From a virus (taxonomy: Duplodnaviria; Heunggongvirae; Uroviricota; Caudoviricetes), in the IMG/VR virus record IMGVR_UViG_2711768054_000001: 28,743 nucleotides of DNA; one strand, written 5' to 3'. A model generated the notes under the pieces. The model had not been told where the DNA came from and ran no database searches. It saw only the letters and a program-made list of their open reading frames with translations. The translations under genes were made by a program, and so were the position numbers. Of the stretch, positions 1-25,192 are shown piece by piece. The first letter of the stretch is position 1; each line of letters starts with the position of its first letter.

Positions 1-298
1 CTGTTCAGCAGATTATCAGGCGCAACTGAAGCGGCATAATCTGCGTGGAAGTATGAGCGCAAAAGGTTGCTGCTACGATAATGCCTGCGTGGAAAGCTTC
101 TTTCATTCGCTGAAAGTGGAATGTATCCATGGAGAACACTTTATCAGCCGGGAAATAATGCGGGCAACGGTGTTTAATTATATCGAATGTGATTACAATC
201 GGTGGCGGCGGCACAGTTGGTGTGGCGGCCTCAGTCCGGAACAATTTGAAAACAAGAACCTCGCTTAGGCCTGTGTCCATATTACGTGGGTAGGATCA
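1..298 (+). mobile_element. IS3-family insertion sequence, right end only (left part lies outside the window)
   Basis: Contains the 3-prime end of the transposase orfB (2-268); after the stop the sequence ...cctcgcttaggcctgtgtccatattacgtgggtaggatca ends at 298, matching the IS3 terminal inverted repeat as I remember it (TGATCCTACCCACGTAATATGGACACAGGCCTAAGCGAGG in reverse complement). Confidence 0.8.
2..268 (+). CDS. insF: IS3 transposase OrfB (InsF-like), C-terminal 88 codons, 5-prime partial at window edge
   Basis: Translation from position 2 gives [88 protein letters not shown], which I recognise as the C-terminus of E. coli IS3 InsF (DDE integrase-core end); stop TAG 266-268. Confidence 0.8.
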
Positions 299-419
299 CG
301 CAGGGGTCGGCCCATTTGAGCTTCAGATAGGAACGTTTGAATTCCTTTCACAAAATACATCACATACTGAACGTGAACATACCCACTTTGATCTTAAGGC
401 CAAAAAGTATGCAGGACTA

Positions 420-2138
420 ATGATTTTTAGGGATAGCTTGAGAGTATTTCCTTATGGTCGAGTAGATAATGATTTCTTCCAGATAGAAGAAAGACGTTCA
501 TGGAATGCAGGGCGATATTATTGGTCTAATAGAAGGATTTTTGGTTATATTGGAATTACTCAATCCAGTAATAAAGAGCTGAAAGATAAGTCGGGGAGAG
601 AGGGATTCATAAGAAACCAGGCTGCAAGAGAACTGAAAACTATTATATCTAATTTGTTAACTGAACTTGCTGATAGATTTTTTGGTTCACGTTCTGATGA
701 CCGTAAAGAGCTTTTAGAACAAGTTAAGCGTGAAAAAGAGTTAAGAAAATCTGCTCAACAACAAGCTCGAAAATCAACACAAAAAAGTTTTTCAGAAGCT
801 TTGAAGAATCAGACACCAGTTCTTGATGCTTCCTTGGAGGCTGTTAAAAGGCTGAAAACTAAGCTTGATAAAACTGATGGTTCGTTAGATTTAAACTATC
901 TTAAAATTATAGACAGTGATCTTACAAACTTAGATGCGTTGCGCAGTGAAATTAAAACGCCTATCAAACCTCCAAAACTTGGAATGTATGAAGAGAAATA
1001 TAGAGACTACAGAGATAAATTTAATGAGTTCTCTGCGTATATTCTACAAATGAAGTTAGCAATTAATAAACTTGATTCTGAATTAAATAAACTTGAGCCT
1101 TCATTGTCAGCGAAAAATCACCTTGAAAAAAATCAAGGTATTATTAATTCTAAACTAACTAAGTTTAATAACACGATAGAGGAGAAGATACATTCTCTTT
1201 TAAAAAAATGGGCCGATGAAATAAAGGTTGATCGAAGTGATTATTATGCTAAAACTATATCAGTTGTTGATTCAATAGATAATGATTCACAAATTGAAAA
1301 TGTGTTTAATTTGCTCGATAGTTTATATGTTGAGTCAGTTGATACCCTAACTTTCAAATATCAATCAATAATAAAAGGTCTCGATAGATTATTTGAAGGT
1401 ATAAACTTAGATTCAGCATTCTCATTATCTGAAGAAGAACGCTCATATTTTGAAGAAAAAGCTAAAAGTTTAAACGCGCTTGCACAGTTAGGTATTAGTG
1501 TTGAGATAATATCTCATGAACTTGAAGAAATGGATTCTATGGTAACCAGAGGACTAAACTCTCTTCCTACTTCTGTAAAAGAACACCCTGGTTTTTCATT
1601 GGCGTTAAATGCTCACAGATCGCTTACTCAACAAATACGTTTCTTATCACCTTTGAAAATATCAGGTTATCAATCCAGGCAGAGAATAACTGGAAAAAAT
1701 ATCATGGATTATGTCCTGAAGTTCTTTGGGGAGCGTTTCGAACGGCAACGAATAACTATTGAATTTAGTGAAGAGTTTAAGCAAATCGCAATAACAGATA
1801 TACCATCAAGGATCTATCCTGTTTTTACTAATATTATCAACAATGCAATGTATTGGGTCAGTCTGTCAAATAATAGGCTCATAAAGATTGGTTTTGTGAA
1901 TTCTTTGGTTATCATAGCAAATTCTGGTCCGGCAATTGATACCGATGATATCCCGCGACTATTTGAACTATTTTATAGCAAAAGAGCAAATGGACATGGG
2001 GTAGGTCTGTATCTATGTCGAGAAAACCTTGCTGTTGCACATCATAAAATATGGTATTCAGAACCTGATGAAGGCGATAACTATTTAATAAAAGATGGCG
2101 CTAATTTTGTGATCCAGTTCAATGGAGTGGAGTTCTAA
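420..2138 (+). CDS. Histidine-kinase-like ATPase (DHp + HATPase_c), apparently 5-prime truncated by the IS3 insertion
   Basis: ORF of 572 aa. Putative H-box ISVEIISHELEEMDSM, N-box NIINNAMYW and G-box GHGVGLYLCRENLA near the C-terminus; the N-terminal 330 aa are K/E-rich and look coiled-coil. The reading frame stays open upstream from 420 back to 294, right at the IS3 end, and there is no convincing RBS before the ATG at 420. GC content is visibly low. Confidence 0.55.
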   Translation: MIFRDSLRVFPYGRVDNDFFQIEERRSWNAGRYYWSNRRIFGYIGITQSSNKELKDKSGREGFIRNQAARELKTIISNLLTELADRFFGSRSDDRKELLEQVKREKELRKSAQQQARKSTQKSFSEALKNQTPVLDASLEAVKRLKTKLDKTDGSLDLNYLKIIDSDLTNLDALRSEIKTPIKPPKLGMYEEKYRDYRDKFNEFSAYILQMKLAINKLDSELNKLEPSLSAKNHLEKNQGIINSKLTKFNNTIEEKIHSLLKKWADEIKVDRSDYYAKTISVVDSIDNDSQIENVFNLLDSLYVESVDTLTFKYQSIIKGLDRLFEGINLDSAFSLSEEERSYFEEKAKSLNALAQLGISVEIISHELEEMDSMVTRGLNSLPTSVKEHPGFSLALNAHRSLTQQIRFLSPLKISGYQSRQRITGKNIMDYVLKFFGERFERQRITIEFSEEFKQIAITDIPSRIYPVFTNIINNAMYWVSLSNNRLIKIGFVNSLVIIANSGPAIDTDDIPRLFELFYSKRANGHGVGLYLCRENLAVAHHKIWYSEPDEGDNYLIKDGANFVIQFNGVEF

Positions 2139-2139
2139 T

Positions 2140-3888
2140 ATGACAGTGGCAAATTATAATTCTCTTGTCCAGAAAACTTTCTGCGAAAATGCAATTCGTT
2201 CCGTTGTCATGATTGATGACGATTTTCTGACGTATTCTGAATCAATCAGGGCGTTGAATAACGAAGTTGATTTAGACTACAACAAAATTGACTCATCTAA
2301 ACGAGCCGCTACTCTTGAGAGCTTTTTTCAATCTAAAAATATGATTTGTGATGTTGACAATGGTTCTGTTAATTTCGATGTGGATCGGATTAGAAAATCA
2401 GATCTTATTATTGTAGATTATCATCTTGATAATAATGCACCTGATAAAACACTTAAACTATTACAAGATTTGAAAGACTCCGATCATTTAAATATGGTTG
2501 TAATATATACTAGAGAGAATTTAGAAACGGTTTGGATGCAGATATCATCGACTCTCAAAGGTGCTCTGGATATCAACAGCTTGATCATTGACTACGATAA
2601 TGAAGATGTCCAAAGTTATTGGGAAGACGTTGTATTACCGAACTTAAATGATAATGGTAATAAAGCTCTCACAAGAGATGAAACAATAGCCTATATTAAA
2701 GACAGTAAGCCTTGTAGAAGAATTAAAAGATTAATACATGATGATGCTGTGTTGGAGGATCAAAAGGATAAAAACTTCATTGCAAAAATGATTGCAGAAT
2801 ATGCTGTGTCTAGAAATGCAATTATTTCTAGCAACACATCTGGCAATGTCATTCGGGGTGATGAAAGCGGAGTAAAATGGATTCAATGTGGTAATATCTT
2901 TGTCTCCCTATTTCATAAGGTTCAAGATGATCATGAAAACGATGGAGATAGGATTTGGCAAACTCTCAATGATTCTCTCATTGAATGGAAACCATCTTAT
3001 TATCAGTTAATAAAATCTGAAATTCAGAATGCAATCGAAGCTGAGGCTTTATCTTTTGTAAATCATTTGGCTAACGATCATTACGGTCAAGCTGCGTGGT
3101 TAAATGAGATATTAAAATCAGACTCGCCTGATATTAGATGTAGAAATATTGACTTTGTATTTGGTAATTTATCAGAAGAGCTTTATCAAAGACTTAAAAA
3201 TAATAATACGCTGGATGAATTTATCAAAAGTGTTTTTGATAGCTATTCAAATGAATACGCTAACAGCGGAGTTGCTGCATTGCTCCAATATTGCTCTTCA
3301 AAAATGGATCTGCCATCAAATAATGATACTTATCACGAAATGTATCATGCTTTAAATATGAATTTGTCTTCAAAGAATTTTGAAGATGGTCATATTTCTA
3401 CTGGCACTATTTTCTTTGATACAGAGTCGAACAAATGGTATTTATGTGTATCTGCGGCATGTGATTTGGTTCCTACTCAGGGTAACGACCCTCACCATGT
3501 AAGATTAAGTCCGCACAGGCTCATTAAAGTTCTGGAGCTTTTTAACGCCAGTCAGAGTAAAGCATTGCCATTTGCTGAACATTCGAAATATATATATGTA
3601 ATGCATAAAAATCAAAGAAAATATCTCTCTATTTTCGAAGGGGATAAAACGCTTCCTGTTGTTGATTATATGGTGGTGTTGAATCATGGAACAACAGTTG
3701 ATGGCGAAGAAAAAAATATTATTTCTGCCGTGTTTTTAAGTAATATGGATGGCAACGTGCAAAATGTTCCTGTCCGACTCAAACTTAAATCTCAACTGAG
3801 AACTGGTTATGCAGAAAGATATCAGGCTATAGCGTCTCAGTATAGCTCAAGGATTGGTGTGGATTATGTATCAATGATGCTACCATAA
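2140..3888 (+). CDS. Receiver (REC) domain protein with a ~450-aa C-terminal domain of unknown function
   Basis: N-terminus carries the response-regulator receiver signature: VVMIDDDF (acidic pair), LIIVDYHLD (putative phospho-acceptor Asp), MVVIYTRE (conserved Thr). RBS GGAGTGGAG at 2124-2132; ATG at 2140 lies one base after the upstream stop, suggesting translational coupling. AT-rich. No DNA-binding output domain recognisable. Confidence 0.6.
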   Translation: MTVANYNSLVQKTFCENAIRSVVMIDDDFLTYSESIRALNNEVDLDYNKIDSSKRAATLESFFQSKNMICDVDNGSVNFDVDRIRKSDLIIVDYHLDNNAPDKTLKLLQDLKDSDHLNMVVIYTRENLETVWMQISSTLKGALDINSLIIDYDNEDVQSYWEDVVLPNLNDNGNKALTRDETIAYIKDSKPCRRIKRLIHDDAVLEDQKDKNFIAKMIAEYAVSRNAIISSNTSGNVIRGDESGVKWIQCGNIFVSLFHKVQDDHENDGDRIWQTLNDSLIEWKPSYYQLIKSEIQNAIEAEALSFVNHLANDHYGQAAWLNEILKSDSPDIRCRNIDFVFGNLSEELYQRLKNNNTLDEFIKSVFDSYSNEYANSGVAALLQYCSSKMDLPSNNDTYHEMYHALNMNLSSKNFEDGHISTGTIFFDTESNKWYLCVSAACDLVPTQGNDPHHVRLSPHRLIKVLELFNASQSKALPFAEHSKYIYVMHKNQRKYLSIFEGDKTLPVVDYMVVLNHGTTVDGEEKNIISAVFLSNMDGNVQNVPVRLKLKSQLRTGYAERYQAIASQYSSRIGVDYVSMMLP

Positions 3889-3900
3889 TTATTATATTTT

Positions 3901-3929
3901 AGGCGTGGTGATTTTTTTTCGCCATGCCT
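3901..3929. terminator. Possible bidirectional terminator hairpin between convergent genes
   Basis: Imperfect inverted repeat aggcgtgg (3901-3908) / ccatgcct (3922-3929) flanking a T-run, located between the 3-prime ends of the receiver gene (+) and the membrane-protein gene (-). Confidence 0.35.
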
Positions 3930-3959
3930 ATTTTATATTTATCATCACAATGATGTTGT

Positions 3960-4376
3960 TTATTTTTGTTTAAGTCTTCTAAGCTTCATGCATTCTAATG
4001 AGAATAATAATAGAGTTGTGCTGTATATAAAGCCAGAGTTAGTTAATAACTTTAAATTTAATGCTTCAGGATTTTCACTGAGAAAGTGAAAGGCATAAAC
4101 TAAGTATACAGCTAAAGTAGCCGTTCCAATTGTTGGTCCAATATCGCCTTGATCATGAGGTTCAAGGTTTACATTGAACTTGAAGATTAGCCATTCAAAT
4201 CCCCAAGTAAAAAAAACAACTAATATCATGGCTGCGAATAATTTCGCGATGTTATCTGCTGATGGATTCATCAGAACAGATTGTTTCTGAAAAAATTCAC
4301 AAAGTGAGAGTCCGAAAAAAATAAAAAAAAGTGGTCTGGAACTAAATTTTTCAAAAACTTTGAATAGGGTTTCCAT
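3960..4376 (-). CDS. Small multi-pass membrane protein (138 aa), unknown function
   Basis: ATG at 4376 preceded on the minus strand by RBS AAGGTAAAG; translation shows about four hydrophobic helices (LFFIFFGLSL, AAMILVVFFTWGF, TATLAVYLVYAF, FIYSTTLLLF); AT-rich. Confidence 0.5.
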   Translation of the reverse strand: METLFKVFEKFSSRPLFFIFFGLSLCEFFQKQSVLMNPSADNIAKLFAAMILVVFFTWGFEWLIFKFNVNLEPHDQGDIGPTIGTATLAVYLVYAFHFLSENPEALNLKLLTNSGFIYSTTLLLFSLECMKLRRLKQK

Positions 4377-4414
4377 TTTCTTTACCTTCAGGATTATATT
4401 AGCTATTCTGATAC

Positions 4415-5644
4415 TTAGGCTACCAGAGCATTTGATCTTTGAGCTTGAACGTAATCACTCCACCATTGCATCAAACTCTGTCGCTCTATCAGATATTCTG
4501 CACGATTGTATGCTGCGATAATTTCATCTTTTTTCGAGTGGGCAAGCGCTGCCTCAAGAACTTCAGCTCTGAATTTACCAGACTCCTCTGCCGCTGTTCG
4601 TGCAATAGAACGCATACCGTGAGCTACAAGCTCGCCTCCGAACCCCATTCGGATGATAGCTGCGTTGGCTGTTTGTTCATGCATATGATTAAGAGGCGCT
4701 TTTATGCTGGGGAAAACCCATTCTCTATGCCCACTTATTGATTTCATTAATTCAAGGATGCGCAAAGCTTCTTTACTCAAAGGAACTTTGTGAAGCTTTT
4801 TCATTTTCATGAAATCAGCAGGAATGTTCCAAATGCTGTTGGTTGTATCAATATCAGACCACCTTGCGCGAACGGCTTCACCCGGACGAACCCATGTCAA
4901 CAATTGCCATTCAATTAGCATACGTGTTTCCAACCGGATTGACGCATTCGTCAAAGATTCCATAAACCTTGGCAATTCGCTTGGGGGAAGGGCAGGCATA
5001 TTTTGCTTTTTTGGTTTACTGAATCTTTGACCAAGGTTGTCAGCCGGGTTGAACTCAATAAGTTCTTCAGTAGCTGCCCACCGGAAGATTTCATTCAGAC
5101 GTGAAATGATACGGCGTAGAGTTTCCAATACGCCTCGTTGCTCAATAGGATCAAGGTGTTGTTTTAAGAGCTTAGGTCGGATCTCATTGATAGGGACATT
5201 ACCCAGACCGGGAAAGACATTTCTCTCTAAGCTGCGCCAGATGTCTGCTGCATGGTCTTGTGAGATACCTGATGTCTTTACCTTCTCATCTAACCATTTC
5301 CGCGCTACGGCTTGGAGAGTGTGCTCAGTAGCACTCTTTAATGCCTTCGCCTTATCGTTGTTATGGATTTGGGGATCAACACCATTTGCCAGAAAGGAGA
5401 GATATTCATCACGTAAGGCTCTGGCTCTTGCAAGGGTAAGGTGAGGATATGTCCCAAGGCTCATTTTGGTTCTTTTCTTGCTCACTGGTACTGCATACCT
5501 GAAATACCAATTTTTCTTGCCTCCTTTCGCCAAAGGAGCGATTCGTAGAATCAGACCATCACCGTCAAACAAGTTGATTTCTTTATCGGCTGGCTTGGTG
5601 CTTTTGATTTCAGTGTCAGTGAGCTTCTTAGCGATTTTTGCCAT
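4415..5644 (-). CDS. int: P4/CP4-57-family tyrosine integrase
   Basis: Translation MAKIAKKLTDTEIKSTKPADKEINLFDGDGLILRIAPLAKGGKKNWYFRY... has the typical P4-type integrase N-terminus, and the C-terminal half contains the R...H..R...Y catalytic region (HGMRSIARTAAEE, EAALAHS, Y in AAYNRAEY). I take the ATG at 5644 as the start; the ORF-track start at 5686 would add a GPK/GPT-repeat extension encoded by GGACCC DNA repeats. Confidence 0.85.
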   Translation of the reverse strand: MAKIAKKLTDTEIKSTKPADKEINLFDGDGLILRIAPLAKGGKKNWYFRYAVPVSKKRTKMSLGTYPHLTLARARALRDEYLSFLANGVDPQIHNNDKAKALKSATEHTLQAVARKWLDEKVKTSGISQDHAADIWRSLERNVFPGLGNVPINEIRPKLLKQHLDPIEQRGVLETLRRIISRLNEIFRWAATEELIEFNPADNLGQRFSKPKKQNMPALPPSELPRFMESLTNASIRLETRMLIEWQLLTWVRPGEAVRARWSDIDTTNSIWNIPADFMKMKKLHKVPLSKEALRILELMKSISGHREWVFPSIKAPLNHMHEQTANAAIIRMGFGGELVAHGMRSIARTAAEESGKFRAEVLEAALAHSKKDEIIAAYNRAEYLIERQSLMQWWSDYVQAQRSNALVA

Positions 5645-5809
5645 TTTGGGACCCTCGGTTTTTGGACCCTTCTTAGTGGGTCCCATTCAGGGTGCCATAA
5701 CTCGTAGTTCTCAGCAATTCTCACTGGACGACAATAGACGTAAAAAAGCCCGCAGAGCTTGTGCTGTGTGGGCTTAGTAGACTTCATTGAACTTCAAACA
5801 ACTAAAAAG

Positions 5810-5854
5810 TGGTGGAGCTGGCGGGAGTTGAACCCGCGTCCGAAATTCCTACAT
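5810..5854 (-). other. ssrA: 3-prime-terminal 45 nt of ssrA (tmRNA), an att-site copy, not a complete gene
   Basis: Reverse complement of 5810-5854 reads ATGTAGGAATTTCGGACGCGGGTTCAACTCCCGCCAGCTCCACCA, identical to the 3-prime end (T-arm plus acceptor CCA) of E. coli tmRNA as I recall it. Similarity stops abruptly at 5855; the upstream sequence is AT-rich and unrelated to ssrA. Confidence 0.8.
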
Positions 5855-5970: not shown

Positions 5971-6954
5971 CTAATTCCTATCAGCAGGTAGAATTGCTGG
6001 GTAGAGCTTAGAGCAATCATTGCCATAGTCAGGGATAAAGTCCCATAGCCCTTTTGGCGTTTGGAAGACCTCAGGGCTTAAGCCAATCAGCATATAAACA
6101 TGAACTAACAGCTCGCGCAATCCAGTGACCATTTGCTTTATTTGTTTTTCATCAGAGAAAGAAGTGGTGAAGGGTTTTTCTTCAATGGAGTCAAAAAGAA
6201 TAAACTCATGTTTTTCATATCGATAGTCGATCCCTAATTCTCTGCAAAGTTGGATAATATTGATTTCGAGCATTTGAAGGGAAATCACTTGGATATCATA
6301 AGAAGTCTCTTTGTTGTAACAGCTTTTAATAGCTTTGTTGATATTCTTATAATAATCTTGAACTCTACCCATAAATAATGAACTTATTTCTTTGCTATAG
6401 CCTTCTTCAATAGAGGATTTTGTAAAAATATTCATGTAAAGAATATAAGGGTGAGAAATGGAAAGTTCTATATATTTTTTTCCATCATCGTGTTCGGTAA
6501 ACTCTCTACTAACGATAAATGAAGGGACGGTTTTAAAAATATCGGCATAACTCTTCTGGTGGGCATAAAATGAATCAGATTTATTTTTTGCTTTTACCAG
6601 CTCTATTTGATGCTCTGTCCTTGAAAGCTGCGTCTCTGTTTGAATGGTCCTGTGAATATTCTTAACTATAGCTCCAAGAGGTACTGAACTGGCTAGCAGC
6701 ATTAGAGGGAATTTACTGATTTCGTAAAAGCGAGTATAGCCGTGGGCACTTAACACCGGGACCTTGCCCCACCATGCGAAAATCCCAAAATAAAAGAATG
6801 ATAATACTGGTATTCCGATTGATAACCAGAATAATTTCTGTTTTATAAGGTTTTGTTCATTTAATAAATACCACTTGTATTTATATGTTAAATACAATAT
6901 GTATATTAACATTACAACATAGAACATAATGCCAATTGATGAATAAAGGGTCAT
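5971..6954 (-). CDS. Membrane protein of unknown function (327 aa); AT-rich cargo gene downstream of the P2-type integrase
   Basis: N-terminal hydrophobic helices (IGIMFYVVMLIYILYL, LFWLSIGIPVLSFFYFGIFAWWG, LMLLASSVPLGAIV) followed by a ~220-aa soluble domain. The start ATG (6954-6952, minus strand) overlaps the int stop (6953-6951) as ATGA. GC content is clearly lower than the flanking phage genes. Confidence 0.6.
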   Translation of the reverse strand: MTLYSSIGIMFYVVMLIYILYLTYKYKWYLLNEQNLIKQKLFWLSIGIPVLSFFYFGIFAWWGKVPVLSAHGYTRFYEISKFPLMLLASSVPLGAIVKNIHRTIQTETQLSRTEHQIELVKAKNKSDSFYAHQKSYADIFKTVPSFIVSREFTEHDDGKKYIELSISHPYILYMNIFTKSSIEEGYSKEISSLFMGRVQDYYKNINKAIKSCYNKETSYDIQVISLQMLEINIIQLCRELGIDYRYEKHEFILFDSIEEKPFTTSFSDEKQIKQMVTGLRELLVHVYMLIGLSPEVFQTPKGLWDFIPDYGNDCSKLYPAILPADRN

Positions 6955-7979
6955 GCTTTTTTCCAGTCTAATTTGTAAAGTGGATTTTTTGTTACAGCAT
7001 CTTCCAAGTGATCAGGGGCAAAGTGAGCGTAAACCATCGTCATTTTTATATCAGCATGGCCCAGAATATCGCGCAGTACCAGTATATTTCCGCCGTTCAT
7101 CATAAAATGGCTGGCGAATGTATGGCGCAGTACGTGGGTGCACTGGCCCTCTGGCAGTTCGATACCGGCTCGCTTTACTGCACGCTCAAAGGATTTTCTG
7201 CATGGGGTAAATAATCTCCCCCTGTTTTTAGGTAGTTCGTCATACAGTTCTTGAGATATTGGAACGGTTCGGTTTTTTTTACCTTTGGTCTTGGTATAAG
7301 TAATGCGATATTTTGATAACTGATGCCCTTGCAGGTTTTCTGCTTCACTCCATCGGGCACCAGTTGCTAGGCATATTTTTGCAATCATCAACAGACTGGG
7401 ACTCTGAGAATCAGCACAGGCATCCAGTAGGCGTTTAATTTCTTCCGGGGTCAGGAATGCTAGTTCACCCTCAGCGATTTTAAATGTTGGCAGCCCGACG
7501 AGAGGATTTGGTGCTGACCAGTGGCCTAGTTTTTTCAATGTGCCGAAAACCGATGATAGGTTACGTTGCTCAAGATTCACCGTGCGTGGTTTTACTGGCG
7601 ACATTAGTGTGCCGTCTTCGTTACGAAGGTCACCTTTTAACCGTGCTTCGCGGTATTTCGTAAAGTCTCCGGCTGTCAGTTCTGAGGCGATGGGGTCGCC
7701 TAGACCATTACAGATAATTCTAAGTTTCGCCATGAGGCGCTTGGGGTCTGCGAGTGTCTGACCATACAGGGAATACCAAAGCTCAATTAACTCTGATAGG
7801 CGTCGCCGATCATCCTTTTCACCCAACCACGGTTTTTTATTCACTTCTTCCATTGTGAAGCTTTCAAACGCAATGGCTTCGCCTTTCGTGGCAAATTGCT
7901 TACGCACGCGCTTGCCATTGCGTCCATTGGGATAGCACTCACACAACCATTTTCCGTTCGGCTGTTTTCTGATGGTCAT
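6951..7979 (-). CDS. int: P2-type tyrosine integrase
   Basis: 342 aa, MTIRKQPNGKWLCECYPNGRNGKRVRKQFATKGEAIAFE...; C-terminus has ARWSE...HVLRHTFASHFMMNGGNILVLRDILGHADIKMTMVYAH (R-H-R-Y motifs). Size and sequence resemble P2/186 Int. Confidence 0.9.
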   Translation of the reverse strand: MTIRKQPNGKWLCECYPNGRNGKRVRKQFATKGEAIAFESFTMEEVNKKPWLGEKDDRRRLSELIELWYSLYGQTLADPKRLMAKLRIICNGLGDPIASELTAGDFTKYREARLKGDLRNEDGTLMSPVKPRTVNLEQRNLSSVFGTLKKLGHWSAPNPLVGLPTFKIAEGELAFLTPEEIKRLLDACADSQSPSLLMIAKICLATGARWSEAENLQGHQLSKYRITYTKTKGKKNRTVPISQELYDELPKNRGRLFTPCRKSFERAVKRAGIELPEGQCTHVLRHTFASHFMMNGGNILVLRDILGHADIKMTMVYAHFAPDHLEDAVTKNPLYKLDWKKA

Positions 7980-7980
7980 A

Positions 7981-8613
7981 TCAAAGGCTCTTAATGATTT
8001 TCAGTGCGCGGCCTACTACCTCAATGTCATCCAGGCCGCACTCAAACGATGAATCATCCTGATGCACTACTAATTTGTTTCCCGGGAGTCGAGTCAATTT
8101 AACAATGCTTTTTATCCCGTCGATATCGACTAACCACATACCATTTACTAGTGGTGTTTGGTTGCGATCTATTAAATAAGAATCACCAGAAGTAGTTACC
8201 AGCAGTAGGTTGCTTGAGTTTGAGGGGAGTATGCTGCTATCAATGATTGCTTTTCCAGCATCGATCAATAAACCACCGTTGAGAGTCGCCTTGTCAATTT
8301 CAGGAGATACTAGTTCAGAAAGAGGTATAACCTTGCTGGAGTTCACGGAATTGATATTTTTTTTGGGTTCAATGTTTGAACCTGGCTCCCCCTGTCCGGT
8401 GGTTAGCCACAGTAAAGAAACTCCTGTTTCCAAGGCGCACTGAATCACCCACTCTGCAGGAAAACTATCTCTTAAGTATCTGTTTGCCATGGTACTTTTT
8501 GATGCGCCTAAGTGATCGCAAAGTTGCTGTCTGGACTTGAAATCATAGGCTGCCATTAGTCTATGGATAGCCTCTCTTCCCCCTGTATTCTCTCCAGCCT
8601 TTACCTGTATCAT
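7981..8613 (-). CDS. CI-like immunity repressor (HTH N-terminal domain), 186-type
   Basis: 210 aa; divergent from the early operon and adjacent to int; N-terminal helix-turn-helix region (SKSTMANRYLRDSFPAEWVIQCALETGVSLLWLTTGQG); no obvious LexA-like Ser-Lys autocleavage motif. Confidence 0.7.
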   Translation of the reverse strand: MIQVKAGENTGGREAIHRLMAAYDFKSRQQLCDHLGASKSTMANRYLRDSFPAEWVIQCALETGVSLLWLTTGQGEPGSNIEPKKNINSVNSSKVIPLSELVSPEIDKATLNGGLLIDAGKAIIDSSILPSNSSNLLLVTTSGDSYLIDRNQTPLVNGMWLVDIDGIKSIVKLTRLPGNKLVVHQDDSSFECGLDDIEVVGRALKIIKSL

Positions 8614-8625
8614 TTTTTAATCCTG

Positions 8626-8677
8626 TTGACGTATCAAATATTGGATCGTAGTATCTCGATGTATCAAATGTTGAATC
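8626..8677 (+). promoter_or_regulatory. Early rightward promoter with direct-repeat operator candidates
   Basis: -35 TTGACG (8626-8631), 17-nt spacer, -10 TAGTAT (8649-8654). Two 17-bp direct repeats gtatcaaatattggatc (8631-8647) and gtatcaaatgttgaatc (8661-8677), 30 bp apart, overlap the promoter; a third GTATCA half-copy sits at 8606-8611. Confidence 0.45.
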
Positions 8678-8732
8678 AAGTAAAACGAGATAAAACGACG
8701 TAAACCAAACCTTAATCGGGAGATACTGCACT

Positions 8733-8975
8733 ATGAGCACTGATATTTCAATTCGTGTACCAAAAGAGATGGCTACGCCTGCAGAGTTCGCGGAATGGGA
8801 AGGTATCTCCCGCGGCTCCGTGTATCAAAAAATTCACCATGGTCAGCTTGCTAAATACATGGTCAAGAAAGAAAAAAACAAAGGCCGCGTAAGCCTGCGT
8901 TATTTAATGTACAAAACCGATCAGGTCCGTGAATCCCTCGGTCATTCCAACTTCCGCGTCATTGTTGGTAAGTAA
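8733..8975 (+). CDS. Cox/Apl-like small DNA-binding regulator/excisionase
   Basis: 80 aa; first gene of the rightward early operon, opposite the repressor; RBS GGGAGA; position matches cox (P2) / apl (186). Confidence 0.55.
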   Translation: MSTDISIRVPKEMATPAEFAEWEGISRGSVYQKIHHGQLAKYMVKKEKNKGRVSLRYLMYKTDQVRESLGHSNFRVIVGK

Positions 8976-9007
8976 GTTCAATTATGAGAACTTTCTAAGG
9001 GGGTAGC

Positions 9008-9517
9008 ATGTTTGATTATAAGATTTCCAAACACCCGCATTTTGATGAAGCCTGTAGAGCTTTTGCACTTCGTCACAATATGGCGAAGCTGGCAGAACGT
9101 GCAGGAATGAATGTCCAGACTTTGCGAAACAAACTCAACCCAGATCAACCGCATCAGCTAAATGCGCCAGAAATCTGGCTGCTTACCGATCTGACTGAAG
9201 ATTCAACGCTGGTAGACGGTTTTCTGGCACAGATTCATTGTCTGCCATGTGTACCGATTAATGAGGTGGCAAAAGAGAAACTGCCACATTACGTCATGAG
9301 TGCAACCGCAGAGATCGGGCGTGTTGCTGCAGGTGCGGTATCTGGCGATGTAAAAACCAGTGCTGGTCGTCGTGATGCTATCAGCAGCATTAACTCTGTA
9401 ACACGACTGATGGCGTTGGCTGCTGTTTCATTGCAGGCCCGTTTACAGGCTAACCCTGCGATGGCGAGTGCAGTTGATACCGTGACTGGCCTCGGTGCTT
9501 CATTCGGTTTGCTGTGA
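9008..9517 (+). CDS. cII: CII-like phage regulatory protein
   Basis: 169 aa, the same length as 186 CII; strong RBS AAGGGGG; position after cox/apl. Confidence 0.65.
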   Translation: MFDYKISKHPHFDEACRAFALRHNMAKLAERAGMNVQTLRNKLNPDQPHQLNAPEIWLLTDLTEDSTLVDGFLAQIHCLPCVPINEVAKEKLPHYVMSATAEIGRVAAGAVSGDVKTSAGRRDAISSINSVTRLMALAAVSLQARLQANPAMASAVDTVTGLGASFGLL

Positions 9518-9524
9518 GGTACTT

Positions 9525-9821
9525 ATGCTGACGAAAGAACCATCATTTGCATCGCTGCTGGTAAAGCAAAGCCCGGCAATGCACTACGGTCACGGCTGGA
9601 TCATGGGTGAGGATGGAAAACGCTGGCATCCATGTCATTCACAAGATGAATTGCTGTCTGAATTGACCACGAGGAAACGGAGAAAGTCAAAATGTATGCA
9701 GCGGAAAGTGAAGTGGTTTATCAGTTTCGTTACAGAGGGGAGAGTTATTCAGTACCTGAAGATGATTTGCTCTGTTGTTATCCGTCGTTGTCGGGCGATG
9801 GCAGTTACTTTTTCACGCTAA
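9525..9821 (+). CDS. Small phage protein (possibly Fil-like); 3-prime end uncertain
   Basis: ATG at 9525; the first ~57 codons (MLTKEPSFASLLVKQSPAMHYGHGWIMGEDGKRWHPCHSQDELLSELTTRKRRKSK) look protein-like; the frame then reads through without a stop into the next gene with low-complexity translation. Confidence 0.35.
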   Translation: MLTKEPSFASLLVKQSPAMHYGHGWIMGEDGKRWHPCHSQDELLSELTTRKRRKSKCMQRKVKWFISFVTEGRVIQYLKMICSVVIRRCRAMAVTFSR

Positions 9822-9916
9822 AAGATGGGACGTTTTTACGGGGAGAGCAGGTTAAAGAGACGATACGAAAAAATGTATCTCCTCTTGAACGTTACCGTAA
9901 TAACAAACAACGATAG
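9692..9916 (+). CDS. Hypothetical small phage protein (74 aa)
   Basis: RBS GGAG at 9679-9682, ATG at 9692; the translation looks like a globular protein. Confidence 0.55.
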   Translation: MYAAESEVVYQFRYRGESYSVPEDDLLCCYPSLSGDGSYFFTLKDGTFLRGEQVKETIRKNVSPLERYRNNKQR

Positions 9917-9938
9917 TTGCGTTTTGGGGATATGAATT

Positions 9939-10280
9939 ATGGCAATTAATGGCGCTGCGGCGACTGTTCCATTAAGCCCCGGTGAACGCCTGAATGGACT
10001 TAATCACATTGCGGAGCTAAGGGCGAAAGTTTTTGGCCTGAATATTGAGTCAGAGCTTGAGCGGTTTATTAAAGATATGCGTGATCCACGGGATATCAAT
10101 AACGAACAAAATAAACGGGCACTGGCTGCTATATTCTTTATGGCAAAAATTCCAGCTGAACGTCATAGCATCAGCATTAATGAGCTGACCACTGACGAAA
10201 AGCGGGAGTTGATTAAAGCAATGAATCATTTTCGTGCAGTGGTGAGCTTATTTCCCAGACGGCTAACCATGCCGAATTAA
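9939..10280 (+). CDS. Hypothetical phage protein (113 aa)
   Basis: ORF in the early operon with an upstream GGGGA RBS; no recognisable motif. Confidence 0.55.
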   Translation: MAINGAAATVPLSPGERLNGLNHIAELRAKVFGLNIESELERFIKDMRDPRDINNEQNKRALAAIFFMAKIPAERHSISINELTTDEKRELIKAMNHFRAVVSLFPRRLTMPN

Positions 10281-10347
10281 CCAACTAATGAAATTAATGG
10301 CGTAAACCCGCCGGGTATCCCTTTATCTAAATTCAGGAGAATTGATT

Positions 10348-10581
10348 ATGCGTAATATTGAAACCCTCACGACTAAAACCGGACCGGATGATGCAGGGCT
10401 TAATATTTTACTGACAGAGGCTCGTCTGGAAGAACGCCGGGCAAGGGCTGAAGCAATGGCAGCTCGCCTTGATAGCCTGGCGTGTCATATCACATCCCGC
10501 CAGCTAAACCACGTCGAAGCAGCAGAACTACTGCGTGTAACTGCTGAAGCAATCCAGAACGAAGCGCAGGAGATCCACTAA
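10348..10581 (+). CDS. Hypothetical phage protein (77 aa)
   Basis: RBS AGGAGA at 10334-10339, ATG at 10348; stop overlaps the next start (TAATG). Confidence 0.6.
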   Translation: MRNIETLTTKTGPDDAGLNILLTEARLEERRARAEAMAARLDSLACHITSRQLNHVEAAELLRVTAEAIQNEAQEIH

Positions 10582-10808
10582 TGGCTGATGCAATGGATCT
10601 CGTACAGCAGCGCGTTGAAGAAGAACGCCAGCGCCATATCCGTGCTGCCCGTGCCAAAACGCCGGGCGTGTCCCGCGTGCTTTGTATTGAGTGTGAAGCG
10701 CCAATTCCGCCAGCACGCCGCCGCGCCATTCCAGGTGTGCAGCTTTGCATTACCTGTCAGGAAATCGCAGAGCTGAAAGGCAAACATTACAACGGAGGTG
10801 CTGTATGA
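10581..10808 (+). CDS. TraR/DksA-family C4 zinc-finger protein
   Basis: 75 aa with CIECEAPIPPARRRAIPGVQLCITCQ, a C-x2-C...C-x2-C zinc finger typical of phage TraR/DksA-like proteins. Confidence 0.75.
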   Translation: MADAMDLVQQRVEEERQRHIRAARAKTPGVSRVLCIECEAPIPPARRRAIPGVQLCITCQEIAELKGKHYNGGAV

Positions 10809-11662
10809 GCACCATCCTGAAATGGGCGGGAAATAAAACCGCCATTATGTCCGAACTGAAAAAGCATCTTCCTGCTGGCCCGCGACTGGTTGAACCTTTC
10901 GCGGGTTCCTGTGCAGTGATGATGGAGACGGAGTACCCCAGCTATCTTGTTGCGGATATTAATCCTGATTTAATCAACCTCTATAAAAAGGTTGCTGCTG
11001 ATTGTGAATCATTTATATCTCGCGCCAGAGTTTTATTTGAGATCGCAAACAGGGAGGTAGCTTATTACAACATAAGGCAGGAGTTTAATTACTCAACTGA
11101 AATTACTGATTTCATGAAAGCGGTATATTTCCTGTATCTCAATCGTCACGGTTACCGTGGTTTATGTCGCTATAACAAGAGCGGGCATTTCAACATTCCC
11201 TACGGTAATTATAAAAATCCGTATTTCCCTGAAAAAGAAATTCGCGCATTTGCAGAAAAAGCCCAGCGAGCAACGTTTATCTGCGCCAGCTTTGATGAAA
11301 CGCTGGCGATGTTGAAGGCGGGGGATGTGGTGTATTGCGATCCGCCGTATGACGGTACGTTTTCCGGCTATCACACTGATGGTTTCACTGAAGATGACCA
11401 GTATCACCTGGCATCCGTTCTTGAACATCGGTCATCAGAAGGACATCCGGTCATTGTTTCTAACAGTGACACATCCCTGATCCGTTCGCTGTATCGCAAT
11501 TTTACTCACCACTATATCAAGGTAAAACGCAGCATCGGTGTGGCAGCTGGCGAGGGTAAATCAGCAACAGAAATCATTGCTGTTTCCGGGCCGCGCTGCT
11601 GGTTGGGATTTGATTATTCGCGTGGCGTGGATAGTTCTGCCGTGTACGGAGTGCGTGCATGA
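10805..11662 (+). CDS. dam: DNA adenine (N6) methyltransferase, Dam-like
   Basis: Motif I PFAGSCAV and catalytic DPPY ([12 protein letters not shown]); ATGA overlap with the upstream stop; RBS GGAGGTG. Confidence 0.85.
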
Positions 11663-14073
11663 GCCATGCTGATATGAACAACTGCAGCGGCTTTAACGAG
11701 GCCGCCGCAGCATTCTCATGGAACAGCCCGAAAAAGGCTATTAACCCTTATCTGGACCCGGCGGAAGTTGCGCCGGTTTCTGCGCTTTCAAACCTGATCA
11801 CTCTGTACGCTGCCGATAACGAGCAGGAACAACTGCGCCGCGAGGCACTGAGTGATCAGGTCTGGGAGCGTTATTTCTTTAATGAATCCCGTGATCCTGT
11901 CCAACGCGAAATGGAGCAGGATAAGCTCATTAGCCGGGCAAAGCTGGCGCATGAGCAGCAGCGTTTTAATCCGGACATGGTCATACTGGCGGACGTTAAA
12001 GCCCAGCCCTCCCATATCAGCAAGCCGCTGATGCAACGTATTGAATACTTCAGCAGCCTGGGCAGGCCAAAGGCTTATTCCCGCTATTTGCGTGAGACGA
12101 TTAAGCCATGTCTGGAACGACTGGAGCATGTACGCGACAGTCAGCTATCCACTTCTTTTCGCTTTATGGCAAGCCATGAAGGGCTGGACGGCCTGCTGAT
12201 CCTGCCTGAAATGAGTCAGGATCAGGTGAAACGCCTGTCTACTCTTGTCGCTGCGCATATGAGCATGTGTCTTGATGCCGCTTGTGGTGATTTGTACGCC
12301 ACCGATGATGTTAAGCCAGAAGAAATCCGCAAGACATGGGAAAAGGTGGCAGCAGAAACCCTGCGACTGGATGTCATACCGCCTGCGTTTGAGCAACTCC
12401 GCCGGAAAAGAAACCGCCGTAAACCCGTACCCTATGAACTCATTCCGGGTTCGCTGGCGCGTATGTTGTGCGCCGACTGGTGGTATCGGAAATTATGGAA
12501 GATGCGTTGCGAATGGCGGGAAGAGCAGTTGCGTGCTGTTTGCCTGGTCAGCAAAAAAGCATCTCCCTATGTCAGCTATGAAGCCGTGATGCATAAACGT
12601 GAGCAGCGCCGTAAGTCGCTGGAGTTTTTCCGTTCTCATGAACTGGTGAACGAAGACGGCGATACGCTGGATATGGAGGACGTGGTAAACGCCAGTAGTA
12701 GCAACCCGGCGCATCGCCGCAATGAGATGATGGCATGTGTTAAAGGTCTGGAGCTTATCGCGGAAATGCGCGGTGACTGCGCCGTTTTCTACACCATCAC
12801 CTGTCCGTCACGTTTCCATTCCACGCTAAATAACGGCAGGCCCAACCCAACCTGGACAAATGCGACGGTAAGACAAAGCAGTGATTATCTGGTCGGCATG
12901 TTTGCTGCATTTCGTAAGGCGATGTACAAAGCCGGATTGCGCTGGTATGGCGTGCGGGTGGCTGAGCCGCATCATGACGGTACAGTTCACTGGCACCTGT
13001 TGTGTTTTATGCGCAAAAAAGATCGCCGCGCCATTACTGCTTTGTTGCGTAAGTTTGCCATTCGTGAAGACCGCGAGGAGCTGGGTAATAACACAGGACC
13101 ACGCTTTAAGTCTGAGCTGATAAACCCGCGCAAAGGTACGCCAACAAGCTACATCGCGAAATACATCAGTAAGAACATTGACGGGCGTGGTCTGGCTGGC
13201 GAGATCAGCAAGGAAACGGGTAAATCCCTGCGTGATAACGCTGAATACGTTAATGCCTGGGCGTCTCTTCATCGTGTTCAGCAATTCCGCTTCTTTGGCA
13301 TTCCGGGGCGTCAGGCTTACCGTGAACTGCGATTGCTGGCTGGTCAGGCGGCAAGGCAACAGGGGGACAAAAAAGCAGGTGCGGCGGTACTGGATAACCC
13401 GCGCATTGATGCCATCCTGGCTGCTGCTGATGCTGGTTGTTTTGCCACCTACATCATGAAGCAGGGCGGCGTACTGGTTCCCCGCAAATATCACCTCATC
13501 AGAACCGCTTATGAAATCAACGAAGAGCCGACCGCCTATGGCGATCACGGCATTCGTATTTATGGCATCTGGTCACCCATTGCAGAGGGCAAGATCTGCA
13601 CTCATGCAGTGAAGTGGAAAATGGTTCGTAAGGCCGTTGACGTTCAGGAGGCGGCAGCCGACCAGGGCGCTTGCGCCCCTTGGACTCGTGGCAATAACTG
13701 TCCCCTTGCTGAAAATTTGAACCAACAGGAGAAAGATAAATCAGCTGATGGGGACCCCAGAACGGACATTACCAGCATGGATGACAAGGAGTTGCACGAT
13801 TACCTGCACAGTATGAGCAAAAAAGAGCGCCGGGAACTGGCAGCAAGGTTACGCCTGGTGAAACCGAAACGGCGTAAAGACTACAAACAGCGAATTACAG
13901 ACCATCAGCGACTGCAGCTCGTGTATGAGCTGAAGTCCAGAGGATTTGATGGCAGCGAGAAAGAGGTCGATTTACTCCTTCGCGGAGGCAGTATTCCGTC
14001 AGGAGCAGGCCTGCGTATCTTCTATCGGAACCAGCGTTTGCAGGAAGATGATCAGTGGCGGAACCTGTATTAA
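11659..14073 (+). CDS. A: Replication initiation endonuclease (P2 gpA-like rolling-circle initiator)
   Basis: 804 aa; HUH-type motif TVHWHLLCF and tyrosine motif [12 protein letters not shown]; size and position match P2/186 gene A. Confidence 0.9.
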
Positions 14074-14980: not shown

Positions 14981-16390
14981 ATGTCTTTTCTTGATATAAA
15001 AAAAATGAGTAAAGAGAGGTTTAATGCTTTTGTTGATTGGACCAGAATGCCAAATACTGAACTTTTAGGCTATGAGTTTGAGTGGTACTGTAGTCCGAGA
15101 GAGTTCCTGCTAGGGGCACTATTATTGGATCAAATCGATGAAGATTATAGCGGTATTGTTTTAGCAAGAGACTTAAGTGGGAGATATAGATGTATTGACC
15201 TATTTACTAGTGTTTCAGAAATGAATTCTGCACGAGCAAAACTAAAGAAATTAATGCGGAAGCATACTAAATTAAACGTAAAAGTATTTCCACAAGGTGA
15301 TGAAACTTATAAAGCAATGGATTTATTCACACCTATAGTTACACCAGATAAACTTCATCATCATTTTTCATTATTTGGTAAATACGCGAACTGGTCGCCT
15401 GCAACAGGGATAATCAAGGAAATGATGAATCATTTTGAGGATGTCGACGGGAATTTTATAGAGCAGTTTCAGACAACAGGTTTTGATGCCCGGCTATGGG
15501 AGTTATATCTTTTCGCATATTTACGAGAGGAACACTTTTGGCTAGATAGGCAGTTTAATGCTCCTGATTATGTGGCACGTAAGTATGGTAATACTATTTG
15601 CATTGAAGCTGTAACGGTTAATCCAACAGGGAATGATATTAATCAATCATCTGAAATGCTATCTGAACCTAAAAGTAAGGAAGAATTGCTAGAGAAAATA
15701 GAGAATTATATGCCGATTAAATTTGGAAGTTCTCTCTATTCTAAACTGAAAAAGAAAACTCGATACTGGGATCTAGAACATGTTAAGGGGAATCCTTTAA
15801 TTTTCGCAATTGCTGATTTTCATGAACCAAACTCTATGATTTGGTCCCATAGTGCACTTTGGCAGTATCTTTATGGTATTCGCTATGAGCATGTTAAATC
15901 TGAAGATGGATGTTACAGTTTAGCAACTAAGAAAATTATATCGCATCAATTTGAGAAAAAGGAAATTCCTTCAGGCTTTTTCTTCTTGGATGAGTCTGAA
16001 AATATTTCGGCCGTCCTTAGTTCTAATAGTGGTACTATATCGAAGTTTAATCGGATGGGAAAACTGGCTGGTTTTGGAAGAAGTGACCTTAGATTATTTA
16101 GGAGTGGTTACTGCCATGATCATGACCCAGAGGCATTATATCCAGCAGCATTTAGTTTTGAAGTGAAAGAAGGCGATATTACAGAAACATGGGCAGAAGG
16201 TTTAAATATGTATCATAATCCTAATGCTAAATATCCTGTAGATCCTGATTTATTTCCTTCAATAGCACATCATTTTCTTGAAAATGGAGAGGTTAAAAGT
16301 ATAGTGCCTGACTTTCATCCGTATACATCTATTACCATAAATGTCTTAACTCAAAATAATAAAAAACAAAAAATCAGAGTAGATGAGTAA
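14981..16390 (+). CDS. Hypothetical protein (469 aa), AT-rich cargo gene between the candidate cos site and the portal gene
   Basis: Long ORF with RBS GAGG upstream; GC content much lower than the flanking phage genes; no motif I can assign (no Walker A, no clear nuclease signature); no TM segments apparent. Confidence 0.7.
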   Translation: MSFLDIKKMSKERFNAFVDWTRMPNTELLGYEFEWYCSPREFLLGALLLDQIDEDYSGIVLARDLSGRYRCIDLFTSVSEMNSARAKLKKLMRKHTKLNVKVFPQGDETYKAMDLFTPIVTPDKLHHHFSLFGKYANWSPATGIIKEMMNHFEDVDGNFIEQFQTTGFDARLWELYLFAYLREEHFWLDRQFNAPDYVARKYGNTICIEAVTVNPTGNDINQSSEMLSEPKSKEELLEKIENYMPIKFGSSLYSKLKKKTRYWDLEHVKGNPLIFAIADFHEPNSMIWSHSALWQYLYGIRYEHVKSEDGCYSLATKKIISHQFEKKEIPSGFFFLDESENISAVLSSNSGTISKFNRMGKLAGFGRSDLRLFRSGYCHDHDPEALYPAAFSFEVKEGDITETWAEGLNMYHNPNAKYPVDPDLFPSIAHHFLENGEVKSIVPDFHPYTSITINVLTQNNKKQKIRVDE

Positions 16391-16437: not shown

Positions 16438-17472
16438 TTAGTCTAGGGATAGTTGATATTCTTTGAATGTAATAATATTATTTTTTAGCCATAAATTTAA
16501 TTCTTCGAAACGTTTTTGCAAAGGTATTAATTCATTACGAACAAATACCCGACTTGCCTTCTCCACATCCCCAAACCCCCCGACATTATTAGGCATAATC
16601 CCCATCATTTGCGGCGGCACTCGGTGTGCTGCCATCATGTCATCGCGGCTCACGTTCTTGATATTCAGAAACTCATCCTTCGCTGCGACTTCTGACAACG
16701 GGATAATCTGAAGTCCGTCTTTTTTACCATTAGGCGAGTACATAAACAGATTGCGGAAGTTGCCAGGGCCTTTGGCGCTTTTCATCGCATTGCGGAGGTT
16801 GTTCACATCCTCCTGGTTCTGCGCGGCATCGGTCATGTACATGATGAAGCCTGCATGACTGCCGTTAATGTAATACTTGCGGCGGAACAGCGTGGCGGAC
16901 TCGTTGAGCAGGGCGGACGGAATGGCAGAAAGATAACCGGGCAGGCCGTAGATCTCCTGGTTGATGTCCGGCTCCATCAGATGAAAAATGCTGCCTTTCG
17001 TGAACTGATACGGCTGGGTTGTCATACCGTATTGCACAAACCAGTAGGTATCCAGGTCTAACCCGCGTCGGGTGTATTTTGCCAGGGCAGGTTCAAGGGC
17101 GATAACTTCACCGAAGCGGTTCGTGCGTTTCTCCAGGTAGGCGTTACCAAATACCAGATAGTCCTGCACAAAACGCGAAAAAGCCTGCTGGCTGAGCAGC
17201 GGGTGAGGGATGTAGGTGCTGGTCAGAATGTTGCACTTTACTGCAATCGGGGAACTATGATGCACGGCAGCGCGGAAGGTGCGCGCCAGTCCGTCAAAGC
17301 TGACGGGCGGCTCATACCAGCGGTCCATCTGTACGCATTCCACATAATCCAGCAGTTCTCGGCGGTCCAGAACAGGAACGGGATCGCCGAAGCTGAATGC
17401 TTCGGCTGAAGTCTGGCTTTTATGCTGAATCTGGTTCGTCGATGCAGCGCGGTTCTTCTTACTCTTTCCCAT
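16438..17472 (-). CDS. Q: Portal protein (P2 gpQ-like)
   Basis: 344 aa, the size of P2 gpQ; lies downstream of terminase P on the same strand with start and stop overlapping (TGATG). I place the ATG at 17472; the ORF-track start at 17475 is TTG. Confidence 0.9.
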   Translation of the reverse strand: MGKSKKNRAASTNQIQHKSQTSAEAFSFGDPVPVLDRRELLDYVECVQMDRWYEPPVSFDGLARTFRAAVHHSSPIAVKCNILTSTYIPHPLLSQQAFSRFVQDYLVFGNAYLEKRTNRFGEVIALEPALAKYTRRGLDLDTYWFVQYGMTTQPYQFTKGSIFHLMEPDINQEIYGLPGYLSAIPSALLNESATLFRRKYYINGSHAGFIMYMTDAAQNQEDVNNLRNAMKSAKGPGNFRNLFMYSPNGKKDGLQIIPLSEVAAKDEFLNIKNVSRDDMMAAHRVPPQMMGIMPNNVGGFGDVEKASRVFVRNELIPLQKRFEELNLWLKNNIITFKEYQLSLD

Positions 17473-24222: not shown

Positions 24223-24355
24223 CGGTGATCTGAACGCGTTGCTGGATGAAACGGAGGCCGCCTGGGCGGTCTGTGCAGACAAAGTGGACATGATTATTGC
24301 GTGTCAGGAGCGAAACAGTGAACAAACCACAATCCCTGCGCCACGCCCTCAATAA
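24065..24355 (+). CDS. LysC / Rz1-like outer-membrane lipoprotein spanin, overlapping LysB in another frame
   Basis: Signal peptide with lipobox LLTLSGC; starts inside lysB in a different frame (GTG at 24065) and extends past it, as in P2 lysB/lysC. Confidence 0.6.
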   Translation: MRTRIYAAGLILLCLLTLSGCGNVRHSPEVWLTVSGCPRVTPCRLEQATPRTNGDLNALLDETEAAWAVCADKVDMIIACQERNSEQTTIPAPRPQ

Positions 24356-25188: not shown

Positions 25189-25192
25189 TCTT

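Follow-up and report, generated by a model that had tools for sequence, protein, structure and literature searches.

A conserved four-helix membrane protein gene as a candidate backbone gene of ssrA-associated mobilizable islands with exchangeable cargo

T4 Imm, P22 SieA, HK97 gp15 and SXT/R391 Eex are small, constitutive inner-membrane proteins that act alone in exclusion for the mobile elements encoding them. A hotspot between int and psu of P4-like satellites was reportedly described by Rousset et al. in 2022. In E. coli, defence-carrying mobilizable elements occupy a tmRNA hotspot (#9), an element class described in general terms only, with no description of the bracket formed by an integrase, the membrane protein studied here, mobC and relaxase, nor of the membrane protein itself (Hochhauser et al. 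2023, PMC10121019). A further described system is the module of a Response_reg_2 and a HEF_HK protein, frequently with a C5-methylase, which is related to paraMORC/R-M systems; 644 regions with this module were surveyed, it was found in Alpha-, Beta- and Deltaproteobacteria and in Firmicutes, and no membrane partner was named (Bellieny-Rabelo et al. 2021, PMC8011034).

Here we analysed a gene for a predicted small membrane protein, TM138, that lies between such a module and an integrase gene in a 28,743-nucleotide stretch of DNA, referred to as a whole as the window (Table 1). Our main reading, to which we assign a probability of roughly 60%, is that TM138 is a backbone gene of integrative mobilizable elements of ssrA and tRNA genes that carry exchangeable cargo, and that the copy in the window belongs to a relic of such an element. 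The element would insert at ssrA or a tRNA gene and would be ordered att, P4-type integrase, TM138, opposite-strand cargo (mostly defence), NikA-like MobC and MobA/VirD2-type relaxase, with TM138 following the integrase as second cistron and ending the run of fixed genes ahead of the cargo slot.

Table 1. Features of the TM138 locus, by position in the window
Feature	Positions	Strand	Basis or remark
IS3-family element end truncating the island	1..269	+	ORF 53-268 reads as an IS3 OrfB C-terminus; RefSeq IS3 pseudogene
3' two-thirds of HEF_HK/HATPase_c gene (ORF 420-2138)	270..2138	+	Homology to full-length 1000-aa protein
Response_reg_2 (PF19192) protein, 588 aa; cargo, not a TM138 partner	2122..3888	+	Pfam; PMC8011034
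Last ~105 nt of the Response_reg_2 gene	3784..3888	+	Stays joined to int-TM138 in DUF6119/Hxs/ABC-3C islands
12-bp hairpin between the convergent genes	3900..3930	.	Terminator scan; comparable hairpins after TM138 at other loci
TM138 gene (138-aa predicted four-helix inner-membrane protein)	3960..4376	-	ORF, homologues, dN/dS, AlphaFold2 model, PHROG 6556, RefSeq
Spacer of 38 nt from integrase stop to TM138 start, with GAAGG motif	4377..4414	-	Sequence
P4/IntA-type tyrosine integrase	4415..5686	-	Arm-DNA-bind_3, Phage_int_M, Phage_integrase; NCBIfam PRK09692
45-nt exact copy of the ssrA (tmRNA) 3' end; att-site remnant at the integrase end of the element	5810..5854	-	Sequence match

The TM138 reading frame was predicted as an AT-rich ORF of 138 aa with a ribosome-binding site, and this description holds: the surrounding DNA has ~34% GC, the ORF list gives an ATG start, and a Shine-Dalgarno-like GAAGG motif can be read 8 nt before it. 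The protein is RefSeq WP_000448925.1, labelled 'hypothetical protein' in RefSeq/GenBank. TM138 is present in 585 of 5426 complete E. coli genomes (~11%), in 561 of them at 99% identity or more; E. coli K-12 is without the island. A search of 5.8 billion proteins returned 52 relatives at 53–99% identity across Enterobacterales, in Escherichia, Salmonella, Klebsiella, Citrobacter, Enterobacter and Serratia as well as Yersinia, Hafnia, Pectobacterium, Photorhabdus, Pantoea and Phytobacter. Searched exhaustively with a profile, 1.84 billion representatives yielded no more than 33 clusters at 50% identity, including one from Cupriavidus; truncated fragments aside, these are stand-alone proteins of ~127–148 aa, with one of 186 aa, and the full length of TM138 is kept down to ~25% identity. 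Pairwise dN/dS across genera is 0.04–0.10, with synonymous sites near saturation.

We considered whether TM138 could be a chance frame in AT-rich DNA, or a dead gene. The GC content is what such a frame might have, and 8 of ~47 near-identical copies, all on draft or viral-binned contigs, carry 1-nt deletions. These deletions fall exactly at two T8 runs of the coding strand and nowhere else (window 4209–4216 and 4323–4330, ORF nucleotides 161–168 and 47–54). Length differences were checked in three complete genomes; two came from indels beyond the borders of the ORF and one from a 3-nt deletion that keeps the frame, the only length variant of the ORF seen in complete E. coli genomes. Since none of the complete genomes checked has a frameshift in the ORF, those of the draft contigs are most probably sequencing errors at homopolymers. 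The idea that the T8 runs mediate phase variation was rejected on the same observation and because the runs are not conserved in TM138 orthologues. The low dN/dS across genera, the length kept to ~25% identity and the state of the ORF in complete genomes refute a chance or dead frame, which we regard as vanishingly improbable. Lack of conservation in related islands, named at the outset as one outcome that would count against the original prediction, did not occur, and, judged by sequence comparison, TM138 is a real, strongly conserved gene under purifying selection.

Hydropathy places four hydrophobic segments in TM138, at residues ~15–29, 44–65, 82–99 and 110–129. AlphaFold2, run with a 31-sequence alignment that includes members at 21–34% identity, modelled helices at 13–29, 40–69, 79–101 and 114–130 and a short N-terminal helix, with a pLDDT of 88 and a pTM of 0.80; with close homologues only, the pLDDT was 56, and it rose to 88 when the distant members were added. 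The two predictions thus give the four helices that had been proposed, and with the homologues they bear out a genuine small multi-pass membrane protein adjoining the integrase on an island. Nine Lys/Arg residues lie on the N-terminus, the loop between helices 2 and 3 and the C-terminal tail, compared to three on the other two loops. This distribution favours an N-in/C-in topology, and TM138 is likely to be an inner-membrane protein with four transmembrane helices and both termini in the cytoplasm. Nine columns are conserved family-wide (P38, L71, D75, G80, G84, L88, L111, F116 and L124), and in the distant subgroup alone E128 and the Ser/Thr following it are also fixed and N68 and K131 nearly so. 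In the model TM138 would have an acidic conserved cytoplasmic loop (N68, L71, D75, G80-P81, G84), a conserved Glu, E128, close to where TM4 ends, and a C-terminal tail of basic character. The family alignment contains no enzyme-like motif.

The only family match to TM138 was PHROG 6556, annotated as 'unknown function' (E 1e-70, TM138 residues 36–138 against the whole 103-position profile). This is the same family, in a profile that leaves out the first 35 residues with their N-terminal helix and TM1, a stretch that every homologue conserves, and its 'phage' membership stems from prophage-adjacent island DNA, not phage genomes. Indeed, among 50,697 phage records TM138 matched only two prophage deposits, one of which, CP-1639, labels the stretch 'remnant integrative element', and the 49 close IMG/VR matches stem from copies of the E. 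coli island picked up at the borders of prophages and are not phage genes. Pfam, NCBIfam and PADLOC gave no meaningful match for TM138 or any of the 31 aligned members; scattered sub-threshold hits, for instance to Na_H_Exchanger (E 0.007–0.03), were taken as hydrophobic noise, and none of the 31 members matched a defence or candidate model of PADLOC-DB v2 at E up to 0.05. A sequence search of the PDB returned no match, and Foldseek searches of the TM138 model against PDB and BFVD had best E values of 3 and 0.7; a TolQ/ExbB fold was dismissed, its Foldseek probability of 0.08 being meaningless. An alignment (A3) searched against metagenome and viral contigs gave no match; another (A2) was too divergent for pattern scans, and the contigs P0080 and P0081 are short and give little context.

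We also compared TM138 by hhalign with lambda RexB and KwaA, the four-helix membrane defence proteins thought most comparable to it, and obtained probabilities of 0.3% and 0.2%. Identity with KwaA of Kiwa was rejected for this lack of a profile relation, and where KwaAB sits near TM138 it already has its own KwaA. CPBP/Abi intramembrane proteases are recognised by the motifs EExxxR, FxxxH and HxxxN. One UniRef cluster of the TM138 family bears this label, and it too was rejected: there was no PF02517 hit in 31 members, TM138 has no EExxxR motif, and its only His, H97, is not kept in distant members. Overall, no homology of TM138 to a known Abi, Sie or toxin family was found. Literature searches on the protein accession, PF22162 and CP-1639 returned nothing, and no description of the TM138 family or of its fixed-flank role was found in the searchable literature.

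The position of TM138 next to the integrase is well kept: the 38–39-nt spacing between the two genes recurs in integrase-linked loci of E. coli, Serratia and other genera. A terminator search of the window found no terminator-like site in the spacer, which makes co-transcription of TM138 with the integrase likely. Promoter scans around TM138 gave scores no better than shuffled sequence or chance. On its other side, TM138 is convergent with the Response_reg_2 gene (2122–3888, +) and the HEF_HK/HATPase_c gene (420–2138, +), and the hairpin in between is a canonical terminator for the Response_reg_2 gene, with no U-tract on the TM138 strand. The initial description of TM138 as an opposite-strand gene is thus right for the kinase/receiver genes and wrong for the integrase, which it follows on the same strand.

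To place the window among its relatives we examined ~100 loci, drawn from a species-level genome scan, exact-protein look-ups, IMG/VR and E. coli genomes. Other strains show the gene order smpB, ssrA, integrase, TM138; in the window, ARAGORN and Rfam detect no full tmRNA gene. The recurrent layout comprises a P4-type integrase, TM138 on the same strand after a gap of 38–39 nt, variable opposite-strand genes, a NikA-like MobC and a PF03432 relaxase. Relaxase and MobC are present at L005, L008, L010, L018–22, L037, L047 and L094 (loci are given by our running numbers), the NikA-like match being weak, with E values of 0.02–0.06. The variable genes form at least five cargo sets that are unrelated to one another: Response_reg_2 with a 1000-aa HATPase_c_3/HEF_HK/HATPase_c protein and a C5-methylase; a 178-aa protein with AAA_13 (PADLOC candidate PDC-S06) and KwaAB; DUF6119 with HxsABCD and an ABC-three-component system (ABC-3C); an N6-methylase with an HTH protein and a BamHI-family endonuclease; and McrBC with two C5-methylases.

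The window retains the integrase and the att remnant of such an element, and beyond the cargo it has neither the PF03432 relaxase nor the NikA-like MobC; instead there is IS3 and then chromosomal ygaQ-glaH, annotated in RefSeq as an IS3 pseudogene followed by ygaQ-glaH-gab. Full-length relatives of the kinase have 994–1000 aa. The kinase of the window aligns to residues 380–999 of the 1000-aa protein, starting at position 270, right after the IS3 end, and is missing the first 379 residues, including the N-terminal HATPase_c_3 (paraMORC-like) domain. The C5-methylase is absent as well; its loss, like that of the kinase N-terminus, mobC and the relaxase, is due to IS3. The window would thus hold an element relic from which IS3 took everything beyond the middle of the kinase gene. 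Given the truncated kinase and the missing C5-methylase, its kinase/receiver module is probably non-functional.

Several features lie on the far side of the att remnant. The ssrA site is tandemly occupied, from window 5971–8613 onward to at least ~21300. Beyond the 45-nt ssrA copy there is a gene for a 327-aa membrane protein (RefSeq DUF4760; PHROG 17460), and then a P2/186-like prophage with genes for Int_N/Phage_integrase, CI repressor, CP76 CII, Dam methylase, GPA, portal, terminase and P2 capsid. In strain E2865 this 327-aa gene lies ahead of another prophage, a lambdoid one. Within the P2/186-like prophage of the window, a 469-aa ORF of 32–37% GC (14981–16390, +) matches PADLOC PD-T7-1 with E 1e-196; it lies between replication gene A (11659–14073) and portal (16438–17475), and is a known defence gene in a known P2 cargo hotspot.

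It had been asked which neighbour TM138 stays with, the kinase/receiver pair or the integrase, and the comparison of islands answers this in favour of the integrase-side flank: the TM138 tree tracks the upstream flank, not the cargo. TM138 of the window, with kinase/receiver cargo, shares 99% amino-acid identity with the copy at L002, where the cargo is DUF6119. Likewise the copies at L023 (kinase/receiver) and L010 (BamHI-type R-M) are 97% identical, and those at L008 (kinase/receiver) and L028 (BamHI-type R-M) 96%, whereas the window copy and those of other kinase/receiver islands, with the same cargo, are only 79–82% identical. DUF6119 islands match the window at the DNA level across the integrase and TM138, up to position 3784 in the 3' end of the Response_reg_2 gene, of which a non-coding remnant of 90–105 nt is kept. 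Because homology stops there, the recombination that replaced the cargo is placed downstream of TM138, which stayed on the integrase side; read from these alignments, the breakpoint of the cargo swap is at 3784. TM138 is therefore retained when cargo is exchanged. Alongside the 585 complete E. coli genomes with TM138, 573 have the Response_reg_2 gene (560 at full length), and the one remnant-only genome inspected, TO73, has a DUF6119 gene in its place.

The original prediction had raised the possibility that TM138 is a third component of the neighbouring module, which would make it a membrane effector or sensor of Response_reg_2, HEF_HK and C5-methylase. TM138 is indeed convergent with and adjacent to this module at many loci and in three TM138 clades, and the Response_reg_2 remnant marks kinase/receiver genes as the ancestral neighbour in DUF6119-type islands. 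However, obligate co-inheritance is contradicted by intact TM138 without these genes, with other cargo or none: beside BamHI-type R-M, McrBC, AAA_13/Kiwa, DUF6119/Hxs, Abi_C/HTH, a Tn7-like module and PFIN. Near-identical TM138 copies adjoin different cargo, and the opposite strand and the terminator hairpin in between speak against a shared transcription unit. Furthermore, the 644-region survey names the methylase and no membrane partner, and the module has a far wider range than TM138, spanning the proteobacterial classes and Firmicutes given above (PMC8011034) compared to the 33 clusters of TM138; at Response_reg_2 loci outside Enterobacterales, TM138 would be expected to be missing. The module itself is also broken in the window. 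We consider the third-component reading largely refuted, and very improbable. The Response_reg_2/HEF_HK pair is nevertheless the commonest cargo beside TM138 and occurs with three of five TM138 clades, which leaves room for a loose functional link. The other suggestion, that TM138 is an independent moron, was right as to independence from the kinase/receiver genes and wrong as to its being cargo, since it behaves as a backbone gene kept while cargo changes.

About one third of TM138 contexts have no adjacent integrase, so an integrase operon is not universal and another promoter is needed there. Such loci include ones near symE in Klebsiella and Citrobacter, in an ICE region in Salmonella and at a prophage edge in Photorhabdus, beside Abi_C and YobI-ATPase genes. 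At L005 and L037 a short spacer still resembles that between integrase and TM138, which suggests that the integrase was lost. Among distant relatives, one at 25% identity comes after a TniQ/TnsD and AAA_22 transposition module, in convergent orientation to the gene that follows, and one at 31% identity, from Cupriavidus, follows a PFIN 'plasmid fertility inhibition' gene. A tblastn search of 72,556 plasmids gave zero matches for TM138 and also zero for the Response_reg_2 protein, so this set is no test of kinase/receiver genes occurring without TM138.

Some individual loci have features of their own. At L037/L038 (8866–9014), a locus of Pectobacterium type, 151 nt from the integrase 3' end (window 4449–4599) lie downstream of TM138 and before McrBC, which hints at a past tandem or rearranged element. 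At L018–L022, the gene for the conserved 178-aa protein (8519–9055, -), with no Pfam or PADLOC match, is directly downstream of the PDC-S06 candidate AAA_13 (9481–11676, -) and beside Kiwa, and the two may form an unrecognised two-gene system. The TO73 ssrA island (L047), with an intact element at NZ_LS992171.1 1,135–1,148 kb, has two adjacent tyrosine recombinase genes followed by a 'DNA-binding protein' gene at 24063–28211; the pair may belong to a further multi-recombinase element beside the mobilizable element. The contig DAIPZW010000118.1 (L013), labelled as a Bacteroidales MAG, carries the E. coli island at 99.9–100% identity and is most likely a binning contaminant.

What TM138 might do for the island is more tentative than its place in it. 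No antitoxin or regulator adjoins it in most contexts, and none does so consistently; with its likely place in the integrase transcription unit, this argues for a constitutive, non-toxic role. TM138 would be made together with the integrase at a routine, constitutive level and, acting alone, might benefit the island by hindering, at the inner membrane, the entry of phage or conjugative DNA. By analogy with small membrane exclusion proteins, and given the distant homologue paired with a fertility-inhibition gene, we tentatively favour a constitutive exclusion-type inner-membrane protein. The exclusion role draws on the size and location of TM138 and on this analogy, and we regard it as a possibility, short of an even chance.

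A role in the life cycle of the element seems less likely. TM138 could couple the relaxosome to helper transfer machinery, modulate helper conjugation or contribute to island stability, and it is among the only ~4 backbone genes (int, TM138, mobC and relaxase) that islands of different cargo types share; a distant homologue's pairing with the PFIN gene would suit this role too. However, TM138 is intact where the relaxase, mobC or integrase is gone, as in the window and near symE in K. oxytoca and Citrobacter, its distant homologues occur in relaxase-free contexts, and it is absent from the plasmids searched, where mobilization accessories are usually common. More doubtful again is that TM138 acts as a toxin or in abortive infection by disrupting the membrane, in the manner of RexB or a holin. 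TM138 resembles lambda RexB in size and four-helix build and sits among defence genes, but it has no profile relation to RexB or KwaA (probability below 1%), no sensor, antitoxin or regulator that is consistently adjacent and no PADLOC match in any of the 31 family members. The 38-nt gap behind the integrase argues for routine expression, hard to square with a lethal product, and such co-expression would make a lethal toxin unlikely. We therefore rank exclusion above element transfer or maintenance, this above an abortive-infection or toxin role, and membership in the kinase/receiver module last.

A broader form of the exclusion reading, which we hold with slightly less assurance than exclusion itself, is that TM138 represents a new family of self-sufficient inner-membrane exclusion/defence proteins, encoded by the fixed first gene before a swappable defence slot in integrase or transposase elements (ssrA/tRNA islands and Tn7-like elements). 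If TM138 does block incoming DNA, it would define a new single-gene exclusion family. Whatever its activity, TM138, carried by ~11% of complete E. coli genomes, is the fixed edge of a slot that exchanges at least five defence or conflict systems, and scanning the interval from a TM138 homologue to mobC and relaxase should enrich for new defence systems. If the new-family reading is true, this bracket could serve as bait for cargo such as the 178-aa/AAA_13 pair, DUF6119/Hxs or the Response_reg_2/HEF_HK/methylase module. We class TM138 among the small membrane accessory proteins of genomic islands, its main practical use being as an anchor for mining defence cargo. For the kinase/receiver module, our analysis means that its two or three genes form a unit that includes no membrane partner, and that the copy in the window is broken.

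Compared to known systems, the Response_reg_2/HEF_HK/C5-methylase module is the immediate neighbour of TM138 here and does not include it. Lambda RexB (144 aa, with RexA as partner) is similar in length, in its four predicted membrane helices and in belonging to an integrated element; TM138 differs in its negligible hhalign probability (0.3%), in having no RexA-like neighbour and in giving no Pfam RexB hit. The analogy we favour is with the exclusion proteins of mobile elements, although TM138 has no sequence or fold match to entries so annotated, in PHROGs or in BFVD, and, unlike these proteins, belongs neither to a phage nor to a self-transmissible element. P4-like satellites share a P4-type integrase beside an exchangeable defence slot; the TM138 island differs from them in having relaxase and MobC and no Psu, Sid or Delta, and P4 is not known to have a counterpart of TM138. 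Where a real P4-like satellite (Psu, RVT_1) does occur, at L033/L036, it lies beside TM138 and not around it. The TM138 islands also resemble the defence-carrying mobilizable elements of the E. coli tmRNA hotspot, which likewise combine insertion at ssrA, an integrase, a relaxase and defence cargo (PMC10121019). Those elements are known as a class; the literature searched contains no account of the TM138 family or of its role as a fixed flank.
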